A DNA stretch of 64,000 bases from an uncultured Chloroflexia bacterium (GCA_963739265.1 CAVTZR010000005.1:507588-571587); one strand, 5' to 3'; positions 9,597 to 55,053 are shown, numbered from the stretch's first letter. The notes: generated by a model from the letters alone, not told the origin. Program-made: numbers and translations.

Positions 9597-9643
9597 CTAT
9601 CGATTTTCCAATTGGGCTTGTGTGCTTGTTGCGCGGGGCCGCG

Positions 9644-10377: not shown

Positions 10378-10381
10378 GCAT

Positions 10382-10398: not shown

Positions 10399-10467
10399 CG
10401 TTCCACGTGCTCGCCGGCATGAAGCCGTGCTAACTCCTTCCGCACAGGTCTGCGTGAACGGCATGGT

Positions 10468-12627: not shown

Positions 12628-12629
12628 CC

Positions 12630-38204: not shown

Positions 38205-39215
38205 CTAGGTAGCAGCGACTGGTTTTGGCGGGCGATAGAGTCCCAGGAATCGACCGAGCAAGCCGTAGCCAACCAGAACGCCTGCGCTGGCGATGACAAT
38301 GAAAACCGCACCGACCAGGAGGAACCTGCCCGCCTGGGGCGACACACCCTCGCCGAGCGCTTCCGCGGCGGCCAGCGCAAGTCCCAAAGCCGCCCCGCCG
38401 AGCGCGGCTGCATGCCATGGATGCAGCCGCGGATTCAGCCAGCCTATCAGACCCTGCACGGCAGGCGCCTGGGTGATCCTTTCCATTCCATTGAAGACGC
38501 CGGCGGGAATGACCCGGCGTCCCTTCAACCAGCGATAGATCGCGGCGATATCGTCGATAGCGTCCTCACCTGCTGACCCCGGCGCCGGGAACATCATAGT
38601 GGGCAGCGCCCATACAGCCGCGAACAGGACTAGCATGCCCAGTAGCGCCGTCAGGATTCCACCGACGATGCTCGTGTCCCATGCCGGAGGGTACGCAGCC
38701 AGAATGATGGCGCTCACCAGGCAGATAAACGCCGGTCGCCTCCACGAACTATCGCCATTGGAGCGCGGTACGTCCTGCAGCCTGGCCCAAAGCCAGAGGC
38801 CCGCGCATACATCCATGATCGCCAGAGCTGCCATGAGTGAGATCAGCGTGCGGCCGCCCGGCGAGCCAAGCGGTCCGGAGGGTTGGCGCAGGACGGCGAT
38901 CGCATCCGCCGCAAGCGTCACGGCGATCGACAACAGCACCAGGGTCGCGCCGCGCAGGATCGATTCGAGTCCGTCTGGCGAGGTCTCCCCACCGGCATAC
39001 GGGCGGAAGGCGCGCAGCACTGTGAGGAGCGCGGTGAACAGTCCGAGCAGCACTCCGAACGATCCGACCGCATCATACGGATCCACGTTGAACGGATTGA
39101 CCGTCGCGAGCAGAGGTAGGTGCTTGCTGCGGTCGAAAAACACGAAGAAGAGCATTGCCAGTATCAGGATTCCGAGCGAGAACACCCTGAATTGGCGCGT
39201 AAGTCGCCTGTTCAT
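38205..39215 (-). CDS. Polytopic membrane protein, unknown family (last gene of the TPR operon direction)
   Basis: It has about 9 hydrophobic helices. The start was chosen at MNRRLTRQFRVF..; the track ORF begins 25 codons upstream. Confidence 0.5.
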   Translation of the reverse strand: MNRRLTRQFRVFSLGILILAMLFFVFFDRSKHLPLLATVNPFNVDPYDAVGSFGVLLGLFTALLTVLRAFRPYAGGETSPDGLESILRGATLVLLSIAVTLAADAIAVLRQPSGPLGSPGGRTLISLMAALAIMDVCAGLWLWARLQDVPRSNGDSSWRRPAFICLVSAIILAAYPPAWDTSIVGGILTALLGMLVLFAAVWALPTMMFPAPGSAGEDAIDDIAAIYRWLKGRRVIPAGVFNGMERITQAPAVQGLIGWLNPRLHPWHAAALGGAALGLALAAAEALGEGVSPQAGRFLLVGAVFIVIASAGVLVGYGLLGRFLGLYRPPKPVAAT

Positions 39216-39342
39216 TTGACTTTGGAGACTAAATGATAGCCGCGATCGCCGAAACTTGCTCTGGATCGTATGCCCCCGCCCGGGAATCACGGAGCGGAGG
39301 ACGAATCGTCATCCGCTCCATGACCTTGCCAACCCCCACGCT

Positions 39343-41049
39343 TTAGCGTGTGTAGTCAGAGATCAGCTGTCGAAAACGGGGATCCTGGCGGATAAAGTCC
39401 AGGTCCGGATCGCGCAGGATCCAGTCGACGTAGGTCTGCTTGTTCCTGAGGGCCACTCGCAGCAGCTCGAGGGCCTCGTCCGCGTTGCCGCAGATCGCCG
39501 CCAGGCACGCCCGGTTGTATTCGTTTTCGCTGTCGAATATGCTCTTCATAGCTTTGCCTATGTGTTTCTGGGCTAATTCCTCCAGCCCCATCTTCCTGTA
39601 ATACCCTCCCAAAGTTGCATGCGCCAGGCTGTGACCCGGATCGATCTCGATCACGCGCTGGAATGCGCAGATGGCATCTTCCGTGCGGCCCAGGCATGCG
39701 TAGAGCAGGCCCAGGTGGTGATGGTACAGGGCCCGCCCCGGATCGGTCGCAACCGCCTGCTGGTATGCCGTCAGCGATTCGGAATACTGTCCCGCCGATT
39801 TGTAAAGATTTCCGAGCGTGTCCCAGGCGTGGGCATTCCGGGGATTGACCTGCACGACCCTCCGGTACTTGGCGATGTCCGTCTGCATCTTGCGCATTTC
39901 TTCGGCCGTGCGCTCGATCTCGGCAGCAAGGTCCGGACTCACCGTTTCCTCGGCTGCATCGGCCGAGGCACCTGCCTCGCCAGCTGCTGCCGGCGCCTGC
40001 GCCATCGGGGGCTCATCCTTGGCCATTTGCATTTCTGTGACCGTCTCAACCGTCTGGCTGACGGCGTACACGAAATCCGGGGTTGGGCGCTCCTCGACCT
40101 CGACCGCGACCTGCGCCTCGACAGCTTGTTCGACGTGGTCCAGGCGGTCGGTGATCTCGCGCCGGAAGACGATGGAAGGAACGATCTCCGGCGTGGAGAC
40201 TGGTTCTGGCGTGGGCGCAGCCGGTCCGATGGTCTCAGTGGGCTCTTCGACTGGCAGTTCCGGCATGGGCATGTCCGCCTCTTCGACCGGTGCCTCCTCG
40301 ATCTCCTGGACCGCCTCCTCGAGATCCGGCCCTGCCTGGATCATGTCCTGCGGGGCCTCCTCAGGGATCGGCAACCACTTGGTCAGATCATCGCCGTCAA
40401 TGTCCGGCACCTCAACGTCCGCATCTGGATCGGGCGCTGCGAACGGATCGGCACCCTCTTCGAAGTTGGGCGCGCCCCACGTTGTCAGCGGATTGGTGTC
40501 GGGCGACGCAGAGACATTCTGCTGGTATGGGCTCAACTCTGTCAGCGCCCAGGAGGCGATAAAGTCTTCAGTTGTGACTGCACTCTGGTCCGTGGAGGGT
40601 ACCGTGTCCTCAGCCTGAAATGGTTGCGGCGGGGCCTCGGCCGGAAAGACAATGTCGACCTCCCGGTCGGGCTGCGCCTTGGCCGCGGTCTCTGAGACCC
40701 AGCCCGGCCGATCATCGCTCTCGCCGTTCTCCGGATCGAGCTCATCGGCCTTCTGGTACGCCATCAGCGCGCTTTGGTAATCCTTCAGGTAGCGGTACAC
40801 GTTACCCAGCCGGTTCCACGAGATCGCTTTCTCGTTGTTCTCGATGAGCAGCTCGATGCTCCTGCGGTATAGGTCGACAGCCTCGTCGAACTTGCCCTGC
40901 TGGACGTAGGTCAGGGCCAGGTTGCTGTAAGGGCGCCCGAAGGTGTCGTCGATCTGGATCGAGCGCCGATAGGCATGCACGGCCTGCCCGTACGATCCGG
41001 AGAGGAAGTACAGGTTGCCCAACTCGTTCCATAATTCGTGTTCGCTCAT
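39343..41049 (-). CDS. TPR protein: N-terminal 3-TPR cassette, acidic/Pro-rich disordered linker, C-terminal TPRs
   Basis: ATG 41049 sits 5 nt after GGAGG. MSEHELWNELGNLY.. ..NEKAISWNRLGNVYRYL.. is followed by a ~250-aa low-complexity region and then C-terminal TPRs. Confidence 0.75.
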   Translation of the reverse strand: MSEHELWNELGNLYFLSGSYGQAVHAYRRSIQIDDTFGRPYSNLALTYVQQGKFDEAVDLYRRSIELLIENNEKAISWNRLGNVYRYLKDYQSALMAYQKADELDPENGESDDRPGWVSETAAKAQPDREVDIVFPAEAPPQPFQAEDTVPSTDQSAVTTEDFIASWALTELSPYQQNVSASPDTNPLTTWGAPNFEEGADPFAAPDPDADVEVPDIDGDDLTKWLPIPEEAPQDMIQAGPDLEEAVQEIEEAPVEEADMPMPELPVEEPTETIGPAAPTPEPVSTPEIVPSIVFRREITDRLDHVEQAVEAQVAVEVEERPTPDFVYAVSQTVETVTEMQMAKDEPPMAQAPAAAGEAGASADAAEETVSPDLAAEIERTAEEMRKMQTDIAKYRRVVQVNPRNAHAWDTLGNLYKSAGQYSESLTAYQQAVATDPGRALYHHHLGLLYACLGRTEDAICAFQRVIEIDPGHSLAHATLGGYYRKMGLEELAQKHIGKAMKSIFDSENEYNRACLAAICGNADEALELLRVALRNKQTYVDWILRDPDLDFIRQDPRFRQLISDYTR

Positions 41050-41060
41050 TCCGTCCTCCA

Positions 41061-43289
41061 CTAGGAGACGTAACTGGGCTTCTGCTCCGCTGCAAAGCTC
41101 CCAAGCAGGCTGAAGCGGGATTGCAGTGAGAGCGTGGAGTTATCGGGGTCGAGGTCATCCGCCCGCTGGTAGGCTGAGATAGCGTTCTCGTAATCGTTCA
41201 GGCGGCGGTACACGTTCCCCAGCCTGTTCCAGGAGATGGCCTTGTCCTTCTCGGTGGTGAAGAGCTCGATGCTGCGCTGGTAGAGCAGGATGGCCTCAAC
41301 GAACCGCCGCTTCTGCACATAGGCCAGCGCCAGGTTGCTGTAGGGCCAGGCGAACCAGCGGTCGAGTTCAATCGCTTTGCTATAGGCGATGATCGCATCA
41401 TCGAAAGCCCCGGTGTTGTAGTAGACGTTGCCCAGTTCGTTCCAGACGTGGGCGTTCTTGGTGTCCATCTCGATCTGCAACTCGCCCGAGGCATCCAACT
41501 TCGTCACCGGCTCCTGTGGGGCCGAGGCCTTCTCTTCCTCAACGGGTGCTGCAGCAGCTTCGGGCTGATACAGGTTGATCGGATCGTTGTTGTCCTTCAG
41601 GAACTCTTCGTACGCGCCCTGGCCCTGGGCCACCTCGGCGGCCGGTGCGGGGACTTGCGTCACCTCGGAGACCTGCGTCACCTCCACGCTGGGGGCGGCC
41701 ACCACCTCGGCGGCCGTCGGCTCAGCCTCTGCGGTCGTCACTTCTGTTGGGGCCTCGGCGGCGGGAGCAGCCGCCTGCGCCTTGACTGCGGCGACCGGCT
41801 GAGTATCTTCCAGGGTCGGGTCCGCTTCCAGCTGCTTCTCTTCGACCGGGATTGTCTGCTCATCCACGAAGGCGGCGGTCGGCTCAGCTTCGGCGACGGC
41901 ATCTGTGGTTGCAACTGCCTCCTCAGCGGCTGGCGCTGCGGGATCGGCGGTCAAGGTGGCATCGGTTGTCTCCGTCGCCGTATTGACCACGGTCACGGTC
42001 TCGGTGAAGGTTTCGATGGTGCTCTGGACCACGACGGTCGTCACGGTCCCTTCGACGCTGGTGGTTTCGGCAACCTCGGCGGGCACCGCTTCAACAGGTG
42101 CTTCAACGGCAGGCGTCTCGGCAAGCGGTGCTTCAAGAACGGGGGTCTCAGCCGCTGGCGTTTCGGCGGCGGGTCCTTGGGCGACCGGCGGTTCGGCAAT
42201 GGGCGCCTCGGAAACAGGCGCTTCAACAGCAGGTGTTTCAGCGACTGGCGTTTCGGCAACAGGCGCTTCGGCGACGGCAATTTCGGGGATCGGTGCGTCG
42301 GCCGCGGGTGCTTCGGCTGTAGCCGTCCCAGCCGGGGCTGCCGCTTGTGGTTCAGCGGCCTGCTCTTCAACAGACAGGGGGGCCTCTGGAGCCGCAGCGA
42401 CCTCAGCGGCGTGGATGGCTTCGGCCTGCGTCGGCGCTTCGACAACCACGGCCTCAGTCGCTTCGAAGGAGACAGCCGTGTCCCCGGCCTCAGCCGCGGG
42501 CCCTGAGCTGGCTGCATCGATAGGCTGGGTGGCCACGTCGGGTGTCGCCTCGCTCGCTACCTCGGGCGCCTGCGCCTCCGGTGCCTCATCCGTTGCCTCG
42601 GCGGGAGTTGCTTCGGCTGCAACTGCTTCAGAAGCCGCTTCCTCCGCCTGGCTCTCGGCCACGATCAACTCGATCGGGCTGACCATGACGGCCGCAGGGG
42701 TCTCGTCGGTGCCCTCAGCGCCAGTCTCGACCACCGTCGGGCTCTGCGGCACCTCATCCAGGTTGTCGCGGAAGCCGGCGTTGTCCCGGTCGAGCTCGTC
42801 GGCCTGCTGAAACGCATCCACCGCCATGTCGTACTCGTTCATCTTGCGGTAGACGTTCCCCAGCCGGTTCCACGCCACGGCCTTGTCCTTGTCGTCCGTG
42901 AGCAGTTCGATCGCCTTGCGGTAGACAGGGATGGCCTGATCGTGCAGGCCCTTCGAGGCCATGGCAAGTGCCAGGTTGCTATAGGCGCTCCCGAAGTTCG
43001 GGTCAAGTTCGATCGCTTGGTTGAACGCGGCGATGGCCTCGTCGTAGCTTTCCATCTTGAACTGGATGTTGCCGAGCTCGAACCAGTTCTGCGCGTTCTG
43101 CGGGTCGATCTCGATGGCCTTCTGGTATGCGCTGATGGCTTCCTTGTTCCGATCCTGTTTGTCGAACACGTTGCCCAGCCGGATCCAGGGGTTAATGAAG
43201 CGCTTGTTGAACTCGATGCTCTTCTCCTGGTAAGCCACCACCGCACTGAAGATCTTTCCCAATTCGTCCCAGAACTCATAGCTGCTCAT
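41061..43289 (-). CDS. TPR protein: TPR cassette, ~430-aa Ala/Pro/Glu/Thr/Val-rich linker, TPR cassette
   Basis: ATG 43289 sits 5 nt after GGAGG. MSSYEFWDELG.. contains KDKAVAWNRLGNVYRKM and KDKAISWNRLGNVYRRL. The stop lies 12 nt before the next gene's ATG. Confidence 0.75.
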   Translation of the reverse strand: MSSYEFWDELGKIFSAVVAYQEKSIEFNKRFINPWIRLGNVFDKQDRNKEAISAYQKAIEIDPQNAQNWFELGNIQFKMESYDEAIAAFNQAIELDPNFGSAYSNLALAMASKGLHDQAIPVYRKAIELLTDDKDKAVAWNRLGNVYRKMNEYDMAVDAFQQADELDRDNAGFRDNLDEVPQSPTVVETGAEGTDETPAAVMVSPIELIVAESQAEEAASEAVAAEATPAEATDEAPEAQAPEVASEATPDVATQPIDAASSGPAAEAGDTAVSFEATEAVVVEAPTQAEAIHAAEVAAAPEAPLSVEEQAAEPQAAAPAGTATAEAPAADAPIPEIAVAEAPVAETPVAETPAVEAPVSEAPIAEPPVAQGPAAETPAAETPVLEAPLAETPAVEAPVEAVPAEVAETTSVEGTVTTVVVQSTIETFTETVTVVNTATETTDATLTADPAAPAAEEAVATTDAVAEAEPTAAFVDEQTIPVEEKQLEADPTLEDTQPVAAVKAQAAAPAAEAPTEVTTAEAEPTAAEVVAAPSVEVTQVSEVTQVPAPAAEVAQGQGAYEEFLKDNNDPINLYQPEAAAAPVEEEKASAPQEPVTKLDASGELQIEMDTKNAHVWNELGNVYYNTGAFDDAIIAYSKAIELDRWFAWPYSNLALAYVQKRRFVEAILLYQRSIELFTTEKDKAISWNRLGNVYRRLNDYENAISAYQRADDLDPDNSTLSLQSRFSLLGSFAAEQKPSYVS
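42060..42321 (-). repeat. In-frame 15-nt periodic repeat (about 17 units) encoding (A/P)-(V/A)-(A/S)-E-(T/A)-type pentapeptides
   Basis: On the + strand the units read GGCGTTTCGGCNNNN / GGTGCTTCAACNNNN. The translation is ..APVAETPVAETPAVEAPVSEAPIAEPPVAQGPAAETPAAETPVLEAPLAETPAVEAPVE.. . Confidence 0.8.
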
Positions 43290-43320
43290 GTCCACCTCCG
43301 TCTTAATGGAACCGGATGTC

Positions 43321-45968
43321 CTATTGTTCGACGCTGCAATTGCTCAAGAGGCTGAAACGGGCCCGGGTGACCAGGCTCACGCCCTCATCGGCCAGGACTA
43401 CCGCCTTCTGATAGGCCTCAATGGCGCTGTTGTAGTCGTTCAGCTTGCGGTATACGTTGCCGAGGCGGTTCCAGGCCGCGGCCTTGTCCTTGTCGTCCTT
43501 GAGCAGATCGATGCTTTTCTGATAGAGCAGCGCGGCCTCCTGATACATGCCCTGCGCTGCAAGTGTCCCGGCCAGATTGCCGTAGAGAAGCCCGGATTCT
43601 GGTTCGAGTTCGATCGCCTTGTTAAAGGCCTCGCTGGCCTTCTCGAACGATCCGACCTTAAAGAAGACCTCGCCGCGCTCGTTCCAGGCCTGCGCGTTCT
43701 GGGGCTGCGCCTCCGTCTGGAAGTCGTCGGCCTGGTCGCGTATGCCGCCGGTCTCCGGGTCGAGCTCCGCCGCCCGTTGATAGGCCGCGACCGCGTTGGT
43801 GTAATCGTTGATGCACCGGTAGGCGTTGCCCAGTCCGTTCCAGGCGATCGCCCTGTCCTGGTCCGAGCTCAGCAACTCGATGCTCTTCTGATAGAGCAGG
43901 ATGGCTTCGGCGAATTGACCACGGGTCAGATAGGTCAGGGCCAGGTTGCTGTAGGGCACGCCGAAGGTAGCGTCCTTCAGGATGGCCTGGTTGTAGGCCT
44001 CGATCGCGCCCTCGAAGTTGCCTGCGTTGAAGCAGGCGTTGCCCTGCTCGGTCAGCTTGGCTGCGTCCGATGCCTCAAGCGCTGCGGCCGTCGTTGGGGT
44101 CGCTGCGCCCGCCGGCGTCGCCACGCCCGCCCCCGGCGTTGAGACCGGAGTGACCTTGCGGGTCTCTTCGCCTTGTGAGACGTTCTGCCCGCTGCCCTCT
44201 TCCTTGAATAGCCAGGCCGGCGGCTCAGTGATCCTGGATTCGGTTGAAGTTTCTTCCGGTTCGACCTCGGGTTGAGCAGCCGCTGCCTCTACGTTCGCGT
44301 CCGCTGCCGGCTCGACCGCATCGGTCGTTATCTCCGCGTCTTCGGGCTGCACCGGGGTCTCGTTCTTCAAGTCCTCGGCCTTGATGCCCGTGATCCCGGG
44401 ATCAAGCTTGTCCGCAGTCTGATAAGCGGCCAACGCATTGTCGTAATCGTTCAGGCAGCGGTAGACGGTCGCCAGGCGATTCCAGGAGATGGCCTTGTCG
44501 CCATCCTTCTCCAGCAGATCGATGCTGCGGAGGAGCAGCGAGACCGTCTTCTTGTACTCGCCACGCTGCATGTAGGTGAAGGCCAGGTTGCTGTAAGCCC
44601 AGCCGTATCCGCGATCGAGCTCGATCGCCTTGGAGAAGGCGGCTTCGGCCTCGGCCAGCGACTCCGCCTTGACGTGGGTCATGCCGAGCTCGTTCCAGAT
44701 CGCGCTGCTCTTTGGATCGATCGCCAGAGCCCGCTGATAGGCCTTGATGGCCTCGCGGTGCCGTTCCTGCTTGTTGAACAGGACGCCCAGCCGGATCCAC
44801 GGGGTGACGTACTGCTTGTTGAGGTCGATGGCCTTGTGGTAAGCCTTCATGGCCTCGTCGGCCCGACCGATGCTGGCGTACACATCGCCAAGTCCGCACC
44901 AGGGCTGTGCGAAGCTGGGCATGTACTGGATCGCCTTGCGATAGGCTGCGATCGCATCGTCCACGTAGCCGATCTTGAAATGCACGTTGGCCAGCCCGGT
45001 CCAGGCGATCGCGTCCTTTTGGTTGCCCTCCAGCGCCTTGCGGAAAGCGACCATCGCCTCGTCGTTGCGACCGATCTTGGCGCACAGGTTGCCCAGGTTG
45101 TTCCAGGCAAAGATCTGGTCCGGAGCGAGATGGATGGCCTGCTTGTAAGCGTCGATGGCCTCGTCGTAGCGCTCGGTGCTGCTCTTGATCAGGGCCAGGG
45201 CGTTGAAGCACTCGGCCTCGAACCAGGCATCCTGCACCTTGTTCGCGATCTGGAGCGCTTCCTGCGATCTGGGCGTCGGCCTTCTCGAAGTCGCCCTTGC
45301 GCCAGTTCAGGACGCCCAGGGTGAGTAGCAGATTGGCCCGTATGGAGCTGGCCTCCTCGCCGCTGGGCAGGTCGGTCAGCAGTGACTCGCGCAGCGAGAT
45401 CTTGGCATCCGTGTCCTCAGTTGCATCGCCGTATTCGCCAGGTCCCTGCCAGGCCGATTCCAGCGTCTGCTTGATCAGCTGCTCAGCCTTCGGGGAGTCG
45501 ACGAATTCGATCACACGATGCCGGTAGGCCCAGAAATCCGGCGCGGCATGCGCCAGCTCGACGATCTCGTTCTCGGTCAGCCAGAAGATGGTGCGGATCT
45601 GGCGCTCGACAAAGAACTCGCGCTGCAGGTTCAGGTTGGAGTACACGCCGGCTGCATCGCTCTTGCCCCAGCGGAAACCGTCGATGAAGAACACCGCGTT
45701 GGCCGGGTTCTTGAATTCCTGCAGGAAGGGGATGATCTGGCCCGTCTTGCGGTCCTTGATGCGCAGATGCACGGTCCGTTGGCCCAGGTCATACAGGAAG
45801 TTGCCCAGGGCGGCCTCGACGTCCTCGCGCACATACTCCGAGCTGTAGACGACGAGCAGGATGCAGGGTCGCTGCCATTTGACGGCCAGCTCCAGCTCCT
45901 TGGCGAGGATTTCGACCCGCTCGTCGAAGGAGCTGCGGTTCTGCGGGGACTGTCGCCTGGCTACTCAT
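43321..45968 (-). CDS. Novel N-domain plus multi-TPR protein (about 880 aa), two frame breaks (45945-45948 G4 run; ~45268)
   Basis: ATG 45968 overlaps the ATPase stop (ATGAGTAG). The N-domain reads ..FDERVEILAKELELAVKWQRPCILLVVY..AVFFIDGFRWG..NLQREFFVERQIRTIFWLTENE..APDFWAYRHRVIEF. It is followed by about 12 TPRs that include three copies of the cassette. Confidence 0.7.
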
Positions 45969-47226
45969 TGAGCAGCTTCCTCAATACCGGGTGGACATCG
46001 CACCAGTTCTCGCCGTCCCGGTATTCCAGCAGGGCCAGCAGCTGCAGCAGGGGGCGCAGGCGATCGTTGTATTCCAGGCGGTTGTTCTCGGCCACTTTCT
46101 GCAGCAGCTTCAGATCCTCCCTGTCCAGGATGCGCCGGTATTCGTTGCGGATTTCGGTGGCGGCCCATTCCACGTCCGCGCATTCCATCCGCGAGGCCCG
46201 CCGCCTGCGTGCCCGGCCGATGGCCGTGCGCATGATGCGCGCCATCTCGCGGAATACGCCGCCGCTGTAGGTGATGGCCGCTTCCAGCGCGGCTTCCTCG
46301 GCCAGCCGGGGTGCCATGCGGACGTGCACGAACTTCGCCAGCGTGTCGTACCCCTCCTGGTAGATGCGCGTCGGGTTCCATCGGCGGGTGCAGGTAGATG
46401 TTCTGCAGGAAGACGGCCTGGTCGCGGATCGAATCGAATTCCTTGCTGTAGAAGAGCGCGCTCGAGACCGTATAGACGATGGCGCAATTGGGCTGCATCA
46501 TGATCTCGCGGCGGTCATGGAAGATGGCGCGGGCCTTCTCCAGGTCCGGCTTGTCCATATCGTCGATCAGGATCAATGGGATGCGGTGCTCCTTGCTGTA
46601 GATGGCCGTGGCGATATGGTTGATGATGGAGATCAAGCCGGTGATGTCGGTCTCGACTACCTGCCGCAGCTCAACCCGCGTGGCCGGCTCGAGCTTCATC
46701 TTCATGCCGGCGTTGACGAAGAAGGCGTCCAGCGAGGCCCCCAGCTCCACGCCCGAGGTGCGGCCCTCCAGGATCGTGGAGATCTCCTTCTCAACCTTGC
46801 CCTTCCATCCGTTGAGTTCCTTGAGCAGCTGTTCGGGCAGCTCGCCGCCCCGCTTGCGATATTCCCGGAAGAGGCGGCCGCCGATCGCCAGCAGGACATC
46901 CCGAAAGTCCAGGTCGATGATGTCGGCTTCCTCGCGGATGCTGAAGTTAATCGGCCAGTACTTGCTGCGAGATCTCGGGGTTGCTCAGGAGGTGCAGCAG
47001 CTCGGTGGACTTGCCGCAGCCGCGGTGCCCGGAGAAGAAGAACTTGGGCGGCCGATAGAACGGCGCCAGGAGCGCATCGGTCAGCTCGGCGATGGGATTG
47101 CCAGGGCGGTTGATGTAGAACGGATTCGGCTGTCCATCCTTGCCGGGCTTGAGCGGAAGGTCGAGCTCGAAGTTGAGCCACGCCGCGATCGAAGTCATTT
47201 GCCACGATGTAATCGAAATTGTTCAT
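45961..47226 (-). CDS. P-loop NTPase (AAA/STAND-like core plus helical C-domain), at least 2 frame breaks
   Basis: Walker A is FFFSGHRGCGKST, Walker B is PLILIDDMDK and a sensor-like strand is NCAIVYTVS. ATG 47226 has an AGAGG Shine-Dalgarno sequence. The first ATG in the Walker-A frame is 47198. Frame breaks lie near 46955 and 46370. Confidence 0.7.
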
Positions 47227-47270
47227 GGATGCCTCTGCACTCAGTGGTCGGATGCCTGGGTCGGTCCCGG

Positions 47271-47926
47271 CTAGTCAGCCGCCGCGCCGGCAAGTCCCTC
47301 GCGGATCGCATACAGCGCGGCCTGCGTGCGGTTCGAAACGTGCAGCTTGTTGAGGATGCTGCTGACGTACTTGGCAATAGTCCGTTCGTGCACCACGAGC
47401 GTGGATGCGATCTCCTGGTTGCTCAGCCCGCGGGCGATCAGGCGCAGCGCCTCGAGCTCGCGCCGGGTCAAGGCCTGGTTGCCCAGTCCGTTCTCGGCCG
47501 GATGATCGAAGTCGTGTATCACTTTCATCGCAATCGAGGGATTGAGCGAGGCCTGGCCGGCGGCCACATCCCGGATCGACTGCAGCAGCTGTACGCGGGT
47601 CGTGTCCTTCAGCATGTAGCCGAGCGCCCCGGCGCTGGATGGCCTGGTAGACGCGCTCTCCCTCTGCAAAGCTCGAGAGGACCAGGATGCCGCGCATCGG
47701 GCACGAGGGCGCGCAGCTTGGGGATCGTGGCCAGACCGTCCTGCCGCGGCATGACCATGTCAAGCAGGATGACGTCGGGCCTGAGCTGGCGGGCAAGCTC
47801 CACCGCTTCGATTCCATCGTGCGCTTCCCCGACCACTTCCATGTCCTGTTGAAATGAAAGGATGGCAACGAACCCTTCCCGGACGACGTTCTGATCATCT
47901 ACAACGAGGACGCGTATCTTTTTCAT
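47271..47926 (-). CDS. NarL/FixJ-family response regulator (REC plus LuxR HTH), two frame breaks
   Basis: MKKIRVLVVDDQNVVREG..DVILLDMVMPRQDG.. is the REC domain and ..LTRRELEALRLIARGLSNQEIASTLVVHERTIAKYVSSILNKL.. is the HTH. Confidence 0.8.
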
Positions 47927-48002
47927 GGCTCCACCCCGGCTCGAGCATTGAAGGTTGATACTGGCATCGACGATGGACCGGTTGCCTGCGGTTGCGATCA
48001 CC

Positions 48003-48440
48003 CTAGCGGGTGGCAACGGTGAGGGCAGAGAACCGGCGTGCATTTGTTTCTGCATCTCTCAGCTCGGCTTCCTGGCTCGCCCAGAATTCGGGCGACCAGA
48101 TCTCGAAGTAATCGCCCTGGCCGACAAGCAGGACATCCTGCTGCAGGCGGGCGAACTCGCGCAGCTCATCGGGTATGCGAACGGTTTCGGGATCGTCGGT
48201 CTCCAGCTCGTGCGCCGTTCCCAGGATCAGGCGGAGCAGGAGCCGCGCCAGCGGGTCGGCGATGTTAAGCGACATGACTCGCCGGTAGATCTCTTTGAAG
48301 GCGCCGGCGCTCAGGACCTGCAGGTTGCGGTCGAACCCCTGGGTGATATAAGCACCGCCTGCCAGCTCCGGCCTGAACTGCGGCGGCACTGCGAAGCGGT
48401 TCTGCTTGTTCACCGTGCGAGAGAATTTTCCTAATAGCAC
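48003..48440 (-). CDS. mraZ: MraZ-like transcriptional regulator (two SpoVT/AbrB-type repeats)
   Basis: GTG 48440 sits 6 nt after GGGAG. It reads LLGKFSRTVNKQNRFAVPPQFR.. and ..ETVRIPDELREFARLQQDVLLVGQGDYFEIWSPEFW. No rsmH or fts genes follow it. Confidence 0.7.
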   Translation of the reverse strand: MLLGKFSRTVNKQNRFAVPPQFRPELAGGAYITQGFDRNLQVLSAGAFKEIYRRVMSLNIADPLARLLLRLILGTAHELETDDPETVRIPDELREFARLQQDVLLVGQGDYFEIWSPEFWASQEAELRDAETNARRFSALTVATR

Positions 48441-48484
48441 CTGCGGCTCCCGGCTGCGTCTTCTCGTTCCCACGTTACGGTTGC

Positions 48485-48513
48485 ATTATAGGGATTCGCA
48501 TATCCCGTGAAAA
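48485..48513 (-). promoter_or_regulatory. Sigma-70-like promoter for the MraZ-RR-ATPase-TPR unit
   Basis: The minus strand reads TTTTCA, a 17-nt spacer, then TATAAT. Confidence 0.45.
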
Positions 48514-48842
48514 CCGCATAAAGGGCCTTTGGACGCCATTCTTCGCGTTTTCCTGCGCCCGAAACGGGAAGCTTTCCTGGTCATTTATGACCGTCAGGAA
48601 TGGCGTCTCTCCAGTCCCTGGATTCTCGCGTTGCAAACGCCCCTACCGCCCCTGCGGGGCACGTCCCCCAGATGCCGCGACAGCGCTCCGGCTGAAAGAT
48701 CGCCACCGCCGCATTTGGGGGAGGATCGGAGGGGTGGCAATAAGGCACAATGCGCCCGTCCACGTCATTGTCGAAGAGCCTGCGCGCTGCAGGGCCAGCA
48801 GAACGAAGCCCGCTTGCCACCGCCGCCCGATGTAGTATGTCG

Positions 48843-48863
48843 GGGCGACCATGAAGGTCGCCC
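48843..48863. repeat. REP-like hairpin GGGCGACC-ATGAA-GGTCGCCC
   Basis: An 8-bp perfect stem. Its translations give the ..GDHEGRP.. / ..FMVAPT.. peptides that I associate with dispersed palindromic repeats in some high-GC genomes. Confidence 0.4.
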
Positions 48864-48970
48864 GAATCAGGGCAAGGATGTACCTCGCCCCTACGACTTT
48901 GCCAATGGCATCATTCCAAGTGCCCCTACCCGTTCTCCACCGTGATCGCCCGGAGCAATCAGGTCCCAGC

Positions 48971-49012
48971 AACAAAAAAGCCCGCTTGAGCAACGTGCGC
49001 TGCAAGCGGGCT
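48971..49012 (-). terminator. Rho-independent terminator after the HK-RR pair
   Basis: The minus strand reads AGCCCGCTTG-(14 nt)-CAAGCGGGCT followed by TTTTTTGTT. Confidence 0.8.
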
Positions 49013-49027: not shown

Positions 49028-49699
49028 CTATTTCCTCGTGTCCCTGTCGCGAGGCTCCGTCAACCCCGTCCGGATTGCATACAGGGCAGCCTGCGTCCGG
49101 CTGGAGAGATGCAGTTTGTCGAGGATGCCGCTGACGTACTTGGCCACCGTCCGCACGTGGACGCCCATGTCGTGTGCGATCTCCTGGTTGCTCTTGCCCA
49201 ACGAGATCAAACGCAGCGTCTGCAACTCGCGGGCCGTCAACGCGTCGGGCGAGTAGGGACCGTGCGCCGGGTACTGGATCTCCTTGATCAGCTTGACCGC
49301 GATCGAAGGCTGGATCGTGGCGACGCCGTTGGCTACATCGCGGATGGCCTGCACCACCTGCAGCCGGGTCGCGTCCTTCAGCAAAAAGCCGAGGGCGCCG
49401 GACTTGACCGCTTCGTACACGCGGTCGTTCTGATCATAGCTGGTCAGGACCAGGATCTTGCATTCGGGCAGCATGCGCTGCAGCTTGGGGATGGTCGTCA
49501 GGCCATCCTGCCTGGGCATCTGCAGGTCCAGCAGCACGACGTCGGGCTTGGTCTTGCGCGCCACCTCGACGGCCTGCAGACCGTCGACCGCCTCACCGAC
49601 CACATGCAGGTCGGGCTGCAGTCTCAGGATGGCCACGAAGCCCTCCCGCACGACGTTCTCATCGTCCACGACCAGAACGCGAATCTTCTTGATCTTCAT
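49028..49699 (-). CDS. NarL/FixJ-family response regulator (paralogue of 47271-47926)
   Basis: MKIKKIRVLVVDDENVVREG..DVVLLDLQMPRQDG.. is the REC domain and ..LTARELQTLRLISLGKSNQEIAHDMGVHVRTVAKYVSGILDKL.. is the HTH. The ATG lies 5 nt after the HK stop. Confidence 0.85.
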   Translation of the reverse strand: MKIKKIRVLVVDDENVVREGFVAILRLQPDLHVVGEAVDGLQAVEVARKTKPDVVLLDLQMPRQDGLTTIPKLQRMLPECKILVLTSYDQNDRVYEAVKSGALGFLLKDATRLQVVQAIRDVANGVATIQPSIAVKLIKEIQYPAHGPYSPDALTARELQTLRLISLGKSNQEIAHDMGVHVRTVAKYVSGILDKLHLSSRTQAALYAIRTGLTEPRDRDTRK

Positions 49700-49704
49700 T
49701 ACGG

Positions 49705-51895
49705 TCACCCCGTTTTGACGGTGCCCATGACTGGATCTTTCTTCACGGTCACGACGATCTTGGTTCCCCGGTTGGGTCTGGATGTGATCTTCAACGTGCC
49801 ATTGATCTGGGCCGTCCGCTCGCGCGATGTTCTGCAGTCCGAGCCCCGACCGGTCGACTTTCTTCGGGTCGAAGCCGCAGCCGTCATCCTGGATCTCCAT
49901 AATGACGTTTCGCCTTCCCTGCTTGAGCGTCACCAGCACCGACTTGGCGTGGGCGTGGCGCAGGACGTTGTTCATCGCCTCCTGGGCGATGTAGTAGAGC
50001 GTCAGCTCCTTGTCCTTGGACAGCGAGATGCCCTCGTCCGCCAGCAGCCGGGCTTTGATGTCGGAGCGTCCCTCCACGGCCGAGATGCGGTGGTGCAGCA
50101 CCGAGATCAGCCCCTCCTTCTCGATATCGACCTGCTGCATCTGGTATAGGAACAGGCGCATCTCCCGAACCGCCTGACGGGCGTTCTCGCCGATGCGGGC
50201 AAACTCCTGCGCCGGGTCCACCGACCGTCCGGCCTCCAACGAAGCCTGGGCGACCTCGGTCGTAGTGACTACCCCATACAGCTTTTGGCTGACCGAGTTG
50301 TGCAGGTCACGCATCAGCTTCTGGCGCTCCTTGGTCGTGATGTCGCGCCGCCGGCGGCGGTCGCTGTCGATCAGATTGCCCATGTGCTCGGCGATGGCGG
50401 TCAGGCGGACGATCTCGTCCTGGCTGAACGCCGGCTTCTCCTTGCGGGCCAGGCACATGCAGCCCAGCAGCCGGCTCTCGCTGCCCTCCTGCACCGTCAG
50501 GGGCACGACCAGGAAGCAGGAGATGGATGTCTTGCGGATGGCGGATGGCACGCGCGCGTCGTCGGTGGCATCGTCCACCAGGAAGGGCTGGCGGTTCTTG
50601 ATCACCCAGTCGAAGAGCGGGGACGAGGCCGGCACGAAGGCCAGGTTCTCCGCGGCCGCGGCGGGCAGGCCCAGGTAGGATGCCAGGTACAGCCTCGGCT
50701 CCTCGTTCTCCTTGGCCCGATCATCCATGATGAAGATGCCCACGATCGGGCTGCGGAACGGAGAGACGATGTGATAGATCGATTCGAGCAGGAAGTCGTC
50801 CAGGCTGAGCGTATTGTTGGCCGCGCTGGAGATGGCGTTGATCAATGCGAACATCTCGTCGCGGGCGCGCTGGCGCGAATCATCCCGCAGCTTGCGCTCG
50901 GTCATGTCGCGCCAGACCGCCAGGCGGCCGTACGGCTTGTGGTTGTGGTCGGAGAGAGTTGAGATGCGGATGTTGATGTAGCGCCAGCCCTCCTCCGAAC
51001 GCATGCTCCGCTTCATCTCGAATTCCTGGCTGGCGTCGATCGCCTGGCCGAGGCTGGGCGAGTCGCCCAGCAGTGCCGAGATGTGCTGCCCCTGGATCTC
51101 GCGCAGCGTGGTGCCTGCCATCCGTTCCGCCGCCGCGTTCATGTCCAGGATCCGGTGGCGCAGGTCCAGGACCATCCAGCCCTCGTCCATGCCTTCGACC
51201 ACCGCGTCGCGATCGAACGGGATGTCGGTGCCTCGCGCCCGGAACAGCTCTTGCAGGTATCCCAGGGCGGCGATGCCGAACGCAAAGGGCAACAGCTCGA
51301 TGCCCGGAAGTGGAGACCAGCCGGCGAAATCGAGCGACAGCGCCGCGACCGGGAAAGTACAGCCGATCGCGGTGAAGAGGGCCGGGTCGAGCAACGACCG
51401 CCGATGGCGGAAGTACACATTGATGGAAAGGATCAGCGCGGCCGCGACCAGTCCATACACGTACACGGCCTGGATCCGGCCCCACGGGCCTGCCGTGAAC
51501 ACCGCCTCGACGGCGGGCATCGTGGTGAACTGGAAGAACTGGTTCCGCAGCGAGGGCACCCAGAACAGCACCTGGGTGGCGACCGGCATGATGGCGAGCA
51601 GGATCAGCCGGTGGAGGTGGACGGCTGCGCTGCGCAGCGACTGTTGCAGTGCGAGCACCAGCACCGCGCTCGCAGCCACCGCCGCGCTCAGGTAGATCAC
51701 GCCGGCCCAGAAGTCATCCTGTGAACCATAGACTGGCGAATGGTAGAGCAGGTAGCAGGCCGAGTTCACCGCGGCCGCCACCGCCAGCACGAACAAGCCG
51801 CCAGCCCCGGGCGCACTGGCCTTGCGCAGCGCGCCCACGCCCGCGATGCAGGCGATCACGATGTTGACGATCAGAGCCAGGGCCTCGAGGTTCAT
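49705..51895 (-). CDS. Sensor histidine kinase: 7TM N-domain, PAS, GAF, HisKA_3, HATPase; one frame break near 49826
   Basis: The H-box is RDLHNSVSQKL, the N-box is ..IAQEAMNNVLRHA.. and the G-box is DDGCGFD..GLGLQNI(RERTAQINGTLKITS..). The true C-terminus ends at TGA 49705-49707. Confidence 0.8.
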
Positions 51896-51958: not shown

Positions 51959-53284
51959 CTACGACGCTGTGAGCGCCTCGATCTGCGCGGGATCGAGCAG
52001 CAAACTCAGGTTCGGGTCACGCCGGGCCTCGGGCCCGGTCATCCGTCCTTCGGAAAGCGCCGCCCGCAGCACCTGCTCCGCCTTGGCCGCATTCCCCATG
52101 ATGCCCTCTTCATAGATCTCCAGCCGCCTCGCGGATTGCTCCGGTTCAAGCTGGCGCGCGGCCTTCAGGTGGCGAATCGCCTCGTCCGGGCGTTCGATCA
52201 TGCAATATGCGATTGCCAGCGACTCGAGATAGGCCGGGTTGTGCGGGGCCAGCGCCACCGCCTCGGCGAAACTCGCCCGGGCGTCGTCGACCTTGCCCAT
52301 GGCTTCATATATGTATCCCAGACGGTTCCAGATCCGGGCGTCCCGCGGATCGACCCGCACGGCTCGCTTGCCGATCGTGATGGCCTCCTGGTTCCGTCCG
52401 AGCATGCAGCTGGCTGCGCTCAGGTTGATCAGCAGCGCGCTGCTTTCGGGTGCGGCCTCCAGCGCCTTCCGATACGTCTCCACGGCCTTCTCGTACTGTC
52501 CGACCTCATGCTGCAGTACGGCCACGCCGTTTAGCAGGTGCCAGGCCAGTTCGGCCAGCTGGTGACCCAGCGCCAGGTCGAGGCCCGACTGGAACGACGC
52601 ATCGGCTTTGACCGGGTCGCCGCGCAGCCAGTAGAGATGTCCGAGGACGTAGTAGAGGTCGACGCGGGTCGACAGCGCCTCGCTATTACGCGGCAGCTTC
52701 GACATGATGTCTTCGCGGGCGCGGATCTTGTCGTCCAGGTTGTCGAACGGGTCCACGGTATCGGGGATATCCCACACGAGCAAGCCCGCTGGCAGGCTGG
52801 CTTTGTGCGCGGCCCGCGCGCTGGCAAACTCGACTACACGGTGCCGAAAGGCCCAGAAGTCAGGTGCGTGGAGGGCCAGGTTGGTGGCTTCGTTGGAAGT
52901 CAGCGAGAAGACTGCCTTGATGCGGTTCTCGACGAAGAGCTCGCGATAGAGATTCAGGGCCCTGTAGGCTTCCTTGCCGTCCTCGGCGCCACCCCAATCG
53001 ATATTGGAAACGAAGAACACCGTCCGATCGGGCGTGGGCGTCGCCAGGATCAGATGGGCCACATCCGCCCGCTCCGGGTTGACCACGATGCGTGCCACGC
53101 TGTGGCCGTCCCGCGCCAGACGGGCTTCCAATTCCTTCTCTGCCTTTTCCTGGCTCAGTTTTGACTTATGGATTGCGAGCAGGATGCTGGGTCTTTCCCA
53201 CTTTGCCGCCAGGCTGAGCTCATCGTGCAGGACGCTGATATTCTCGTCGAAGGTCTTCCCGCCCTTTGGGCCCGTATTCGACAT
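51959..53284 (-). CDS. Novel N-domain plus TPR protein (441 aa), paralogue of 43321-45968
   Basis: ..FDENISVLHDELSLAAKWERPSILLAIH..TVFFVSNIDWG..NLYRELFVENRIKAVFSLTSNE..APDFWAFRHRVVEF is followed by about 6 TPRs. Confidence 0.75.
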   Translation of the reverse strand: MSNTGPKGGKTFDENISVLHDELSLAAKWERPSILLAIHKSKLSQEKAEKELEARLARDGHSVARIVVNPERADVAHLILATPTPDRTVFFVSNIDWGGAEDGKEAYRALNLYRELFVENRIKAVFSLTSNEATNLALHAPDFWAFRHRVVEFASARAAHKASLPAGLLVWDIPDTVDPFDNLDDKIRAREDIMSKLPRNSEALSTRVDLYYVLGHLYWLRGDPVKADASFQSGLDLALGHQLAELAWHLLNGVAVLQHEVGQYEKAVETYRKALEAAPESSALLINLSAASCMLGRNQEAITIGKRAVRVDPRDARIWNRLGYIYEAMGKVDDARASFAEAVALAPHNPAYLESLAIAYCMIERPDEAIRHLKAARQLEPEQSARRLEIYEEGIMGNAAKAEQVLRAALSEGRMTGPEARRDPNLSLLLDPAQIEALTAS

Positions 53285-53320: not shown

Positions 53321-54172
53321 TCACTGCATCCCGCTGAGGAAATAGATCTTGGTGAGCGGGAACCGGGTGCGGGCTTCCTCGCTCAACTGGTCGTAGTAGC
53401 GCACCCACAGGTCGAAGAAGTTCTCGAGGTCGAGCAGGGTCGTCTTCTTGAAGGTTTCCTTGCGTCGCGCCTCGGATACCTCGTAGGTGAAGCCGCCGGT
53501 TGAGATCAGCAGCCCGTAATCGCCATCGCTCATCACAGAGAGGAACGACTTCAGTCCCTCCATGGTGACGGGTTGGCCCTTGTGTTGGAGCTGCACGAGG
53601 ATGCGCGGGCCCTTGGCGCCGATCGGATCGGTGTAAGCCACCAGGTCGATGCGGCCGTGGTCTTTCTCAGGCGGGGCGATCCAGGCAACGTGATAGCCCA
53701 TGGCCTTCATCAGGTCGGCGGCCATGCCCTGGAACGCGACCCGCCGCGTGGACTGCAGGTATCTCTGGATCTGCTCCCAAGCTTTCTCTTCGGCCTCCTC
53801 GACTGTCATAGCGTAGGTCGGCGCGCCCTGCTTTACGATCTCCAGTCGGTCGAGGGCTTCCTTGTACAGCTCTTGGGGGCCGCGGAAGCGGCGGCAGGCC
53901 TGGCGTCCCTCCTCGGTGATAAACCAGCGACCCTTGTTGTTCTTGACGAGCCAGCCGGCCTGGACCATCGGGATGGTGGCCAGGCGAACGATCCGCTCGT
54001 AGCGCGGGATGTTCGTCGGGGGAGCGTAGCCCTTTTCGTACTCGGTCAGTTGTGTGATCTGCGGGATGTAGGAGAGGATCTCCTGGGCGGGTATCCCCTC
54101 GGGTTTGTTCCACAGCAGCTCCAGCACGCTGCGCAGCAGTTCACCGACCCTGGTTACCGTGACATCTGCCAT
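53321..54172 (-). CDS. Mrr-like restriction endonuclease (Mrr_N winged helix plus Mrr_cat)
   Basis: The N-terminal wHTH is ..RYERIVRLATIPMVQAGWLVKNNKGRWFITEEG.. . The C-terminal PD-(D/E)xK-like core is ..GRIDLVAY.. and ..ILVQLQHK.. . Confidence 0.7.
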   Translation of the reverse strand: MADVTVTRVGELLRSVLELLWNKPEGIPAQEILSYIPQITQLTEYEKGYAPPTNIPRYERIVRLATIPMVQAGWLVKNNKGRWFITEEGRQACRRFRGPQELYKEALDRLEIVKQGAPTYAMTVEEAEEKAWEQIQRYLQSTRRVAFQGMAADLMKAMGYHVAWIAPPEKDHGRIDLVAYTDPIGAKGPRILVQLQHKGQPVTMEGLKSFLSVMSDGDYGLLISTGGFTYEVSEARRKETFKKTTLLDLENFFDLWVRYYDQLSEEARTRFPLTKIYFLSGMQ

Positions 54173-54288
54173 CTGCTGTCTCTGCTATCCAGTATAGTAT
54201 CAACGCTCCGCGGTGGCAAGCAGCCACTGCGGCTGAAGGAATGACTCATCCACGGAGGCCTACGAAATGCAGCGCCTCCGCTGGTGGG

Positions 54289-55053
54289 TCACTGACCGCG
54301 ACGAGGCGGAAAGCCTTGCTCCTGTCGCGTCACACGGATGAATTCGATGATCGTTTCGGGAGTGTGAGGGCTCGATCCGACAAGCACGAGGTAGGGGGCA
54401 GCCCAGAAGTCGCTGCTGAGATTCTCCTCCCTGTAGTGCGGGTAATCCTCGAGGATCTTCTTCGAGGTCATCTCACGGATCAGGCGGATGCTTCGGGCGG
54501 GGGGCGTGGAGGCCGGGGCGCTGACGACGTACTGCAGGAACTCGGGGCGGATCATGATGAAGTCGAGCCGCCATCCGAACGAGACGCAGATCTGATACAT
54601 CGTCTCGCGCAGGAACGGGACCACGTCGCCACGCAGACGATGGGCCCCGAAGCGCGGGATCAACAGGCAGGCATAGGATAGATCATACGGCCGCCTGGTG
54701 AACAGCGGCTCGAATACGACCTTGCGTTCGACCACGGACGGTCCAACGCGACCAGCCTGCACCGGCCGCACTGGCGCGGGACGGAAACTGCCCGGAATCG
54801 GCGGCGCGGGGAGACGCGGGTCCGGGGGCGGACCCAGCACTGCCATCTGATCAACTGGTGAATTGGGAATCGCAAGGCGCGGCAGTTCGATCGTCTCCGA
54901 TGCAAACCGCTTCTTCTTGACGGACGCGTTCCGCGCTTTGGCCACTGGTTTCGTTATCCCTTGGGCGGCTCCCTGAGCCGCTGGCTGCGATGTGAATCTG
55001 TCCTGACGATTGCGACCTATGTCTTCGATCTGTTCGCGCGGCAGACAATGCAA
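54289..55053 (-). CDS. IS200/IS605-like Y1 transposase-fold protein lacking catalytic residues, with a Pro-rich N-terminal extension
   Basis: ..YDLSYACLLIPRFGAHRL..LRETMYQICVSFGWRLDFIMIRPEFLQYVV..SIRLIREMTSKKI..FWAAPYLVLVG.. follows the Y1_Tnp layout. However, the HUH position reads FLQ and the C-terminal Tyr position reads F (IIEFIRV). Confidence 0.55.
   Translation of the reverse strand: MHCLPREQIEDIGRNRQDRFTSQPAAQGAAQGITKPVAKARNASVKKKRFASETIELPRLAIPNSPVDQMAVLGPPPDPRLPAPPIPGSFRPAPVRPVQAGRVGPSVVERKVVFEPLFTRRPYDLSYACLLIPRFGAHRLRGDVVPFLRETMYQICVSFGWRLDFIMIRPEFLQYVVSAPASTPPARSIRLIREMTSKKILEDYPHYREENLSSDFWAAPYLVLVGSSPHTPETIIEFIRVTRQEQGFPPRRGQ

Follow-up and report, generated by a model that had tools for sequence, protein, structure and literature searches.

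The STAND NTPases, of the AP-ATPase, NACHT and MalT types, reportedly combine a P-loop domain, a Walker B motif of the form hhhhDD, a helical domain and a winged helix. A two-gene operon with an active and an inactive STAND NTPase was described by Kaur, Iyer, Burroughs & Aravind (2021, eLife 10:e70394; PMC8195603): the intact and eroded modules are adjacent and predicted to form a hetero-multimer through an arginine finger, the family is close to S29/Dap3, the inactive module occurs in fusions with GT4 or HEPN effectors, and the operon as a whole is mobile. Here we analyse a stretch of 64,000 nucleotides from an uncultured Chloroflexia bacterium (GCA_963739265.1 CAVTZR010000005.1:507588-571587; hereafter 'the window'), in which six minus-strand genes encode a MraZ-like regulator, a NarL-type response regulator, a 420-amino-acid ATPase, an 881-amino-acid protein with an N-terminal domain ('N-domain') followed by TPR repeats, and two further TPR proteins.

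The operon of Kaur et al. is the closest published concept to this ATPase/N-domain pair. The combination of a MraZ-like gene, NarL regulators with a kinase, an AAA+ pair and TPR scaffolds is fixed across an order, the Anaerolineales, and we found no description in the literature of a MraZ-like leader with a NarL/kinase system, an active/inactive AAA+ pair and polyanionic TPR scaffolds. We tentatively read the operon as a heteromeric ATP switch under signal control whose task is the assembly of multivalent TPR/disordered scaffolds and which is possibly linked to the envelope or to division, a reading that we hold as possible rather than probable; its role looks housekeeping rather than defensive.

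An active ATPase and its degenerate neighbour

The ATPase (47226-45961, minus strand; 420 amino acids after correction of sequencing errors, see below) was modelled with AlphaFold2 on 64 diverse homologues, with a predicted local distance difference test score (pLDDT) of 92.3 and a predicted TM-score (pTM) of 0.91. The model shows an AAA+ core with a helical insert of about 120 amino acids between Walker A and Walker B, then a lid and, at the C-terminus, a winged helix. All family members share Walker A (GxxGxGK[ST]T), with G66, G71 and K72 invariant, and Walker B ([DE]221-D222-L-D224-K225, or [DE]DLDK) is at least 90% conserved, with D222 in 59 and D224 in 58 of the 64 sequences. The sensor-1 residue T252 is kept in 60 sequences and R302 in 63, and the SGG-x2-R sensor-2 region is conserved as well. 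The intact Walker motifs noted in the initial annotation are present.

The best Foldseek matches of this model in the PDB were the archaeal Orc1/Cdc6 proteins 2qby_A (E = 5e-7, TM-scores 0.45/0.51), 1fnn_A, 1w5t_A and 2v1u_A, followed by RuvBL, TnsC, RdrA and Apaf-1 at TM-scores of about 0.4-0.5. Like the Orc1/Cdc6 structures (PDB 2qby, 1fnn, 1w5s/t, 2v1u), the ATPase has an AAA+ base, a lid and a C-terminal winged helix, and its insert stands at the position of the initiator-specific motif. However, the TM-scores to these proteins are 0.40-0.51 at 11-15% identity, the partner of the ATPase is a TPR protein, and the corresponding profiles match below threshold: NCBIfam TIGR02928 (Orc1/Cdc6) in 15 of the 64 family members and the ORC-CDC6-like PF24389 in 13, the window's protein being among neither.

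Other profiles gave a similar picture. The window's ATPase has no Pfam match at E <= 0.01 and none at threshold in NCBIfam or among PDB sequences, and PADLOC-DB 2.0 returned no family at E <= 1 for the ATPase, the N-domain or the membrane protein encoded downstream. Sub-threshold Pfam matches in the family are led by AAA_16 (56/64) and include AAA_22, ATPase_2, nSTAND5, NACHT and NB-ARC, as well as KAP_NTPase (30/64, best 1.8e-12). NCBIfam ATPase_Sll1717 is matched, again below threshold, by 42 of the 64 (best 1.5e-9); the window's protein reaches E = 0.008, with 15 bits against a cutoff of 75. As judged from its model, the ATPase is an Orc1/Cdc6- or STAND-like AAA+ protein outside every curated family tested.

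What is STAND-like is that the P-loop domain has an hhhhDD-type Walker B, that a helical lid and then a winged helix come after it, and that 'sensor' arrays of TPR, LRR or WD40 repeats accompany it. Unlike a STAND protein, the ATPase ends after the winged helix, at residue 420, and its repeats are found on the product of the next gene, a polypeptide that bears a dead AAA+-like domain of its own. It also differs in lacking an N-terminal effector or adaptor domain, in its insert between Walker A and Walker B, and in matching no Pfam STAND model (NACHT, NB-ARC, AAA_16, nSTAND) at threshold. NTPases of the KAP and Sll1717 types share a large insertion in the P-loop domain between the two Walker motifs. 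Here, however, the insert (residues ~107-212) is modelled as a soluble helical bundle rather than as transmembrane helices, and the window's ATPase has no KAP (PF07693) match at E <= 0.1.

Is this insert a means of binding DNA? Initiator-clade AAA+ proteins bind DNA via a helical insert and a winged helix, and the ATPase could be a DNA-directed regulator or nucleoid organiser that uses the same two elements, with the TPR/disordered proteins as cofactors, in chromosome organisation, segregation or transcription. The top structural matches in our searches are DNA-bound Orc1/Cdc6, TnsC and IstB, the model has its C-terminal winged helix, R183 and R187 in the insert are near-invariant, and four loci carry the block between rnpA-yidC-jag and parA-parB, genes that are origin-proximal in many bacteria. 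We nevertheless consider this explanation quite improbable: every STAND/Orc core contains a winged helix, which does not have to bind DNA, TM-scores of 0.4-0.5 are low, just 4 of 88 loci show the origin-proximal position, and partners as polyanionic as these TPR proteins (net charges of -86 and -59) are unlikely chromatin binders.

The proposed ATP switch depends as much on the N-domain of the 881-amino-acid protein (45470-45968, minus strand), which is degenerate and AAA+-like. Its AlphaFold2 model, built from a shallower alignment and hence of lower confidence, has a five-strand alpha/beta core. ORC4 is its best Foldseek match, and Yta7, TnsC, IstB, Rif2, RuvB and clamp-loader subunits also appear (E ~1e-5); the best matches are all AAA+ modules, degenerate ones included (ORC4, Rif2, clamp-loader delta). 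There is no P-loop, strand 1 ('ILLVVYSSE') passing directly into a helix, and 'FFIDG' occupies the Walker B position. Just ahead of strand 5, at the arginine-finger position, stands a conserved arginine; in Anaerolineales, that of the 'APDFWxxR' motif has a conservation of at least 90%, and 13 of 15 diverse N-domains share it, the two cyanobacterial ones having an arginine three residues further on. At threshold, the N-domain belongs to no Pfam, NCBIfam, PADLOC or PDB-sequence family. The initial annotation had matched the architecture to nothing described, and this stands: neither protein matched a well-characterised family. The annotation's comparison with a split STAND-like NTPase and TPR sensor survives at the level of the fold; because the N-domain is itself a dead AAA+-like domain, we are dealing with an active/inactive ATPase pair and not with a simple NTPase plus sensor.

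Such a mix of active and inactive AAA+ subunits recalls the ORC complex, the source of the N-domain's best match. Compared by description with the operon of Kaur et al., the pair is similar in that the two genes are adjacent and the P-loop of the N-domain is eroded. The arginine is conserved in the inactive N-domain, an arginine at the canonical finger position being present in only 20 of the 64 active ATPases, and 16 of the 64 match Pfam DAP3, weakly and below threshold. The pair differs in that its inactive module is fused to TPR, LRR or WD40 repeats, or to nothing, and in that the Anaerolineales version sits on the chromosome, is highly conserved and has MraZ and a two-component system beside it.

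Extent and conservation of the operon

Between 39.3 and 48.5 kb of the window, the minus strand shows six co-directional, tightly coupled genes when its open reading frames (ORFs) are listed and all three frames translated. The MraZ-like gene comes first (48440-48003; 145 amino acids), followed by the NarL response regulator RR2 (47926-47271; 217 amino acids after correction), the ATPase, the N-domain+TPR gene (45968-43321; 881 amino acids after correction), TPR744 (43289-41061; 742 amino acids) and TPR572 (41049-39343; 568 amino acids), all on the minus strand. The stop codon of the ATPase shares bases with the start of the N-domain gene (ATGAGTAG), both genes after the ATPase have GGAGG 5 nucleotides ahead of their ATG, and 11-12 nucleotides separate the TPR744 stop from the next ATG. 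The tight packing and coupled junctions first noticed in the window are therefore all present, the gene order is kept in related loci, and the six genes are confirmed as one conserved unit behind one promoter.

Several of these frames are broken in the window. A JGI metagenome contig, L003 (related loci are cited by such labels), is 98.4% identical to window positions 57226-43424 over 13.8 kb with 11 gap openings, which correspond, in the window, to a 3-base deletion, a gap of one base and nine single-base insertions. Broken operon genes contain seven of these insertions: two in RR2 (47690, 47636), three in the ATPase (47183, 46966, 46364) and two in the N-domain gene (45952, 45265); the other indels are at 48918, 49826, 50037 and 56344. 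The frames are uninterrupted in L003, L001 and further related loci, and correction against L003, a step foreseen in the initial annotation, recovered intact frames. Since so similar a contig has intact genes, the window's frameshifts are, on this comparison, artefacts of sequencing. Most of the insertions adjoin GCGC/CGCG contexts rather than homopolymers, and they look like a systematic, motif-linked base-calling or assembly error that breaks most genes of the region.

How widely is the operon conserved? A search with the ATPase in a 90%-clustered database gave 975 matches, the best 120 of which are 81-98% identical, about 420 amino acids long and named 'hypothetical'; all but one of the organism names among these 120 are Anaerolineales or Chloroflexi. 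An exhaustive HMMER search found 2,182 clusters (at 50% identity) at E <= 1e-3 and 173 at E <= 1e-30. Scanning the GTDB species representatives with a profile from 12 closer sequences revealed relatives in at least 464 species-level genomes, and the best 80 loci are essentially all from Anaerolineae metagenome-assembled genomes, including Ca. Villigracilis and Ca. Desulfolinea.

The neighbourhood is conserved as well. The N-domain gene directly follows the ATPase in 82 of 84 loci, about 0-45 nucleotides from its stop and usually with overlapping codons. Among the 52 loci with at least 6 kb of upstream flank, a MraZ-like gene lies within 2.1 kb upstream of the ATPase in 49, and a 7TM-PAS-GAF-HisKA_3 kinase with a NarL regulator is found 2.4-5.5 kb upstream in 40. 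This association persists despite rearrangements of gene order, for instance in the order regulator, small N-domain protein, kinase, MraZ, GH25 muramidase, ATPase; in rearranged loci, small or TPR-fused N-domain paralogues adjoin the kinase. When all ORFs from 88 loci were clustered, the ATPase was represented in 85 loci, N-domain/TPR proteins in 75 (198 proteins), the MraZ-like protein in 60, response regulators in 52 and the histidine kinase in 46. Less widespread were Mrr-like proteins (20 loci), a membrane protein unlike that of the window (18), a GH25 muramidase with SH3 domains (16) and an IS200-like Y1 transposase (15). In four genomes whose loci also include parA and parB, identity is 91-97% for the ATPase, as against 78-90% for ParA and 81-88% for ParB. 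We read the block as a regulatory and scaffold module that Anaerolineales inherit vertically on the chromosome and that has stayed almost unchanged across these filamentous bacteria. In L054 (159-3445, 17831-19486), L026, L055 and L059, the whole block is found between rnpA-yidC-jag and parA-parB.

These synteny data already contradict the notion that unrelated genes came to be adjacent by chance in one lineage, which we regard as highly implausible. It is true that TPR proteins are abundant in these genomes and that the flanks outside the block vary among lineages. However, start and stop codons overlap, the ATPase/N-domain pair is kept down to 24% identity in other phyla, and the association of MraZ, kinase and regulator outlasts rearrangements.

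All three large proteins of the operon carry copies of one conserved 3-TPR cassette, with linkers rich in A, E, P, V and T between cassettes. Beyond its N-domain, the 881-amino-acid protein consists of TPR arrays (Pfam TPR_1, 3.7e-98), an acidic linker of about 140 amino acids and a C-terminal tail, LVTRARFSLLSN (43321-45469, minus strand). In TPR744, N- and C-terminal cassettes flank a linker of about 450 amino acids rich in A, E, V, P and T, with a net charge of -86, which bears out the long acidic/Pro-rich linkers of the initial annotation. TPR572 has an N-terminal cassette, an acidic linker of about 300 amino acids and a C-terminal TPR + DPxLDxIRxDPRF module, and a net charge of -59 over the whole protein. 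The N-domain protein and TPR744 have a C-terminal tail in common (LLTR[AT]RFSLL[SG]N and SRFSLLGS, respectively), and the motif is kept in the N-domain protein of 32 loci. TPR744 orthologues occupy the same position in loci of the same architecture, where a C-terminal probe is 66-91% identical.

Promoter, regulators and flanking genes

The operon promoter, TTTTCA-17-TATAAT (48485-48513, minus strand), is of the sigma-70 type with 10 of 12 positions matching, and is the best sigma-70-like match within 37.8-49.3 kb. An alignment of 18 relatives upstream of MraZ shows an invariant TATAAT (18/18), GGTTT at the -35 position, a GGAG Shine-Dalgarno sequence and a TTG or GTG start. As proposed initially, this promoter comes after a strong terminator. 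The latter (48971-49012, minus strand) is intrinsic, with a 9-bp GC-rich stem, a 14-nucleotide loop and a T6GTT tail; read directly in the sequence, it is GCCCGCTTG-N14-CAAGCGGGC then TTTTTTGTT. It lies 16 nucleotides past the RR1 stop (49028) and ends the kinase/regulator unit; our scanner did not find it because its loop limit is 8 nucleotides.

The spacer between this terminator and the MraZ start (48441-48970) is unusually long, about 530 nucleotides, and measures 315-590 nucleotides in relatives. No conserved ORF was found in it, and scanning both the region and the entire window against Rfam gave one tRNA-Glu elsewhere and nothing else; in view of this lack of an Rfam match, we place no riboswitch or leader RNA in the 590-nucleotide upstream spacer. 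What the spacer does contain is a palindrome, GGTCAT-TT-ATGACC (48579-48592), about 145 nucleotides upstream of the MraZ start and the sole perfect copy in the window. With a spacer of 2-5 nucleotides allowed, 28 of 64 related loci have a matching box between -127 and -158 relative to the MraZ start, and the 18-sequence alignment shows at least 90% conservation of the GGTCA core. The palindrome is a candidate operator for a dimeric helix-turn-helix regulator, and the two GerE-type regulators, RR1 and RR2, would be the obvious candidates to bind it. In the closest relatives, a GCAAAGAAT box is kept about 95 nucleotides upstream of the MraZ start. Direct repeats of the GTGGG type, canonical for MraZ, were not evident by eye around the promoter.

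RR2 combines a receiver (Response_reg, PF00072, 1.3e-24) with a GerE/LuxR helix-turn-helix (PF00196, 8.7e-17) and is intact in L001 and L003. The initial annotation saw it as a regulator without a cognate kinase; this has to be revised, since a HisKA_3 kinase and a paralogous regulator stand immediately upstream in the 40 loci mentioned above, giving RR2 a candidate kinase next door in most loci. In the window this partner unit (49028-51895, minus strand) comprises the 7TM-PAS-GAF-HisKA_3 histidine kinase (51895-49705; 730 amino acids in L003) and the NarL regulator RR1 (49699-49028; 223 amino acids), a paralogue of RR2; an indel artefact merges the two into one ORF of 955 amino acids.

The MraZ-like gene has a GTG start behind a GGAG Shine-Dalgarno sequence and an intact 145-amino-acid orthologue in L003. 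Its product matches Pfam MraZ (PF02381) at 1.5e-17, in two stretches, with 63.8 bits against a cutoff of 23, and contains two MraZ (SpoVT/AbrB-like) repeats. A MraZ-fold regulator that comes first behind the promoter is also what leads the dcw operon. Here, however, what comes after the MraZ-like gene is, in all 60 loci, a response regulator, a GH25 muramidase or the ATPase, and never rsmH, the window contains no dcw genes, and the protein falls below the equivalog cutoff with its DxxxR arginines partly kept. Because these arginines are only partly kept, the Anaerolineales MraZ-like subfamily may not bind DNA in the canonical manner. A MraZ-led replacement for FtsZ, attractive if Anaerolineae lacked FtsZ, was set aside because literature searches gave no support for such a lack.

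Upstream of the kinase, the window encodes a 441-amino-acid N-domain+TPR paralogue (51959-53284, minus strand; E = 1.2e-50 with the N-domain hidden Markov model, and TPR matches in Pfam). Another 37 nucleotides upstream lies a gene for a restriction-endonuclease-fold protein with Mrr_N and Mrr_cat domains (53321-54172, minus strand), a lineage-restricted accessory gene. Together with an IS200-like Y1 transposase-fold gene (53321-54945 for the two, minus strand), it is syntenic in 15-20 related genomes; such synteny is unusual for a transposase-like gene and suggests a domesticated copy. PolA is encoded upstream of the block in the window and likewise in the relative L090. In 16 loci of one sub-lineage, a GH25 muramidase with C-terminal SH3 domains lies between the MraZ-like gene and the ATPase (L030 8826-9980, L035 8615-9961, L042 8850-9983 and 13 other loci), and this lineage also has a conserved membrane protein of about 450 amino acids past the TPR genes.

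At its other end, the operon possibly closes with a hairpin (39291-39319, minus strand) that has a 13-bp stem with one mismatch and a 3-nucleotide loop. It lies 24 nucleotides past the TPR572 stop, lacks a U tract and abuts the GTG start of an ORF for a 361-amino-acid multi-pass membrane protein (38205-39290, minus strand), which matches nothing in Pfam, NCBIfam or PADLOC. The initial annotation had attached this protein to the unit. We leave it out, since none of the related loci searched has a counterpart at this position and the hairpin separates it from TPR572; a lineage-specific insertion is one possibility. In L090, a cupin gene comes directly after the TPR572 orthologue. Elsewhere the window contains ordinary metabolic genes, and a transposase of the IS3 family (HTH_21 + rve; 30241-31254, minus strand) sits in a patch of low GC content (0.56 vs about 0.63).

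Distant relatives and the role of the operon

Ten distant relatives of the ATPase (24-39% identity) were collected from other lineages and from cyanobacterial megaplasmids. In all ten an N-domain gene adjoins the ATPase, 3-210 nucleotides downstream or overlapping its stop, and encodes a TPR or LRR fusion, a stand-alone N-domain, or a fusion to a NACHT-like P-loop and WD40 repeats. Small stand-alone N-domain proteins are common in filamentous cyanobacteria. Searches with the N-domain protein gave only short proteins and fragments, so that the repertoire of fusions is under-sampled. Because the pair is kept in all ten, the ancestral unit would be an ATPase with an N-domain-repeat protein, of which the Anaerolineales form is, as far as these sequences indicate, a derived and fixed version. 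Plasmid-borne relatives are cyanobacterial only (Nostoc and Acaryochloris megaplasmids, 24-29% identity). One of them, on plasmid pNsp_c of Nostoc sp. ATCC 53789 (L095), is 25% identical and is followed by a gene (7493-13027) for a 1,844-amino-acid protein annotated as 'ribosome assembly protein 4', in which the N-domain is followed by TPR-like helices, a second intact P-loop (GQSGVGKSS) and WD40 repeats.

Megaplasmid relatives with NACHT-like/WD40 fusions are the pattern expected of conflict systems, and this leads to the main alternative, which we judge unlikely: a conflict or programmed-cell-death system of a multicellular bacterium, whose STAND-like pair would sense an invader or damage via TPR arrays and act through effectors, namely, for the window's lineage, the Mrr-fold nuclease and, for another, a cytoplasmic GH25 muramidase with a membrane protein. 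The fold and the weak profile matches fall in STAND/KAP/nSTAND space, 5 of the 64 ATPase family members weakly matching an NCBIfam anti-phage ATPase; the partner repeats differ (TPR, LRR, WD40), as they do with STAND sensors; the lineage-variable, effector-like neighbours (Mrr in 20 loci, muramidase in 16) fit the same pattern; and the active + inactive operons of PMC8195603 were described as conflict systems. On the other hand, there is no PADLOC match even at E <= 1 and no relative among the viral contigs of IMG/VR. The ATPase is more conserved than ParA and ParB, and the TPR cassettes are conserved, as the C-terminal probe attests, rather than diversifying. The surroundings of the block in the chromosome are stable, PolA being upstream in two lineages, and many loci, such as L001, L024 and L036, have no effector-like gene. 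The flavour of defence that the initial annotation perceived is weakened accordingly.

The scaffold-assembling ATP switch that we tentatively favour has to be weighed against the megaplasmid fusions, the anti-phage matches and the variable neighbours just cited, and against several further points. The N-domain model is of moderate confidence only (pLDDT 74), and the N-domain and the ATPase are similar at the level of the fold alone: they are not detectable paralogues by sequence, with an hhalign probability of 1.9% and no sequence relationship. The ATPase/N-domain heterodimer is put forward as a proposal. A role in the cell envelope or in division is weakly suggested by the MraZ leader and by the muramidase of one lineage; this muramidase occurs in only 16 of 88 loci and has no visible signal peptide. 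The MraZ-like protein itself scores 87.1 bits with TIGR00242, under the equivalog cutoff of 98.35, and the arginine equivalent to what we take to be R15 of E. coli MraZ is kept in only 36 of 61 MraZ-like sequences, the second-repeat arginine in 9.

How would the switch work? Its core would be a two-protein device in which the ATPase, with Walker A, Walker B and sensors intact and no conserved arginine finger of its own, pairs via an AAA+-type interface with the dead N-domain of the TPR proteins (881 and 441 amino acids). The near-invariant arginine of the N-domain would complete the ATPase site in trans, as happens in ORC and clamp-loader assemblies. ATP binding and hydrolysis could then gate the assembly and disassembly of a multivalent scaffold made of repeated, conserved 3-TPR cassettes and long polyanionic disordered linkers, the 'RFSLL' C-terminal tails being possible TPR-docking or membrane-binding peptides. 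Expression would start at the one conserved promoter with the MraZ-family regulator leading, while the 7TM-PAS-GAF kinase would signal via the two paralogous NarL regulators, probably through the GGTCAT-N2-ATGACC palindrome. The most likely process to be served is envelope, division or filament morphogenesis.

A bolder version, which we think unlikely, makes the operon an unrecognised machine of filamentous Chloroflexota, an ATP-gated polyanionic TPR scaffold that organises septation, cell-cell junctions or filament fragmentation. The scaffold, controlled by MraZ and a two-component system, would form a condensate or polymer by tail-to-TPR contacts, and the machine would be this lineage's own equivalent of divisome or polar-hub organisers, its origin being a STAND-like active/inactive pair that serves conflict elsewhere.

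The filamentous Anaerolineales abound in sludge, sediments and soils and, to our knowledge, the cell biology of these bacteria is almost wholly unknown. The present operon is a gene block more conserved in these bacteria than ParA/ParB and yet without an annotated function, and it couples an AAA+ pair to a MraZ-family regulator outside the dcw cluster. The active/inactive pair, the arginine finger predicted to act in trans and the TPR/disordered scaffolds offer a concrete, testable entry point. More broadly, the ATPase and the N-domain-repeat protein define a widespread two-gene family that no current model describes, and one that connects housekeeping-like and conflict-like contexts in multicellular bacteria.

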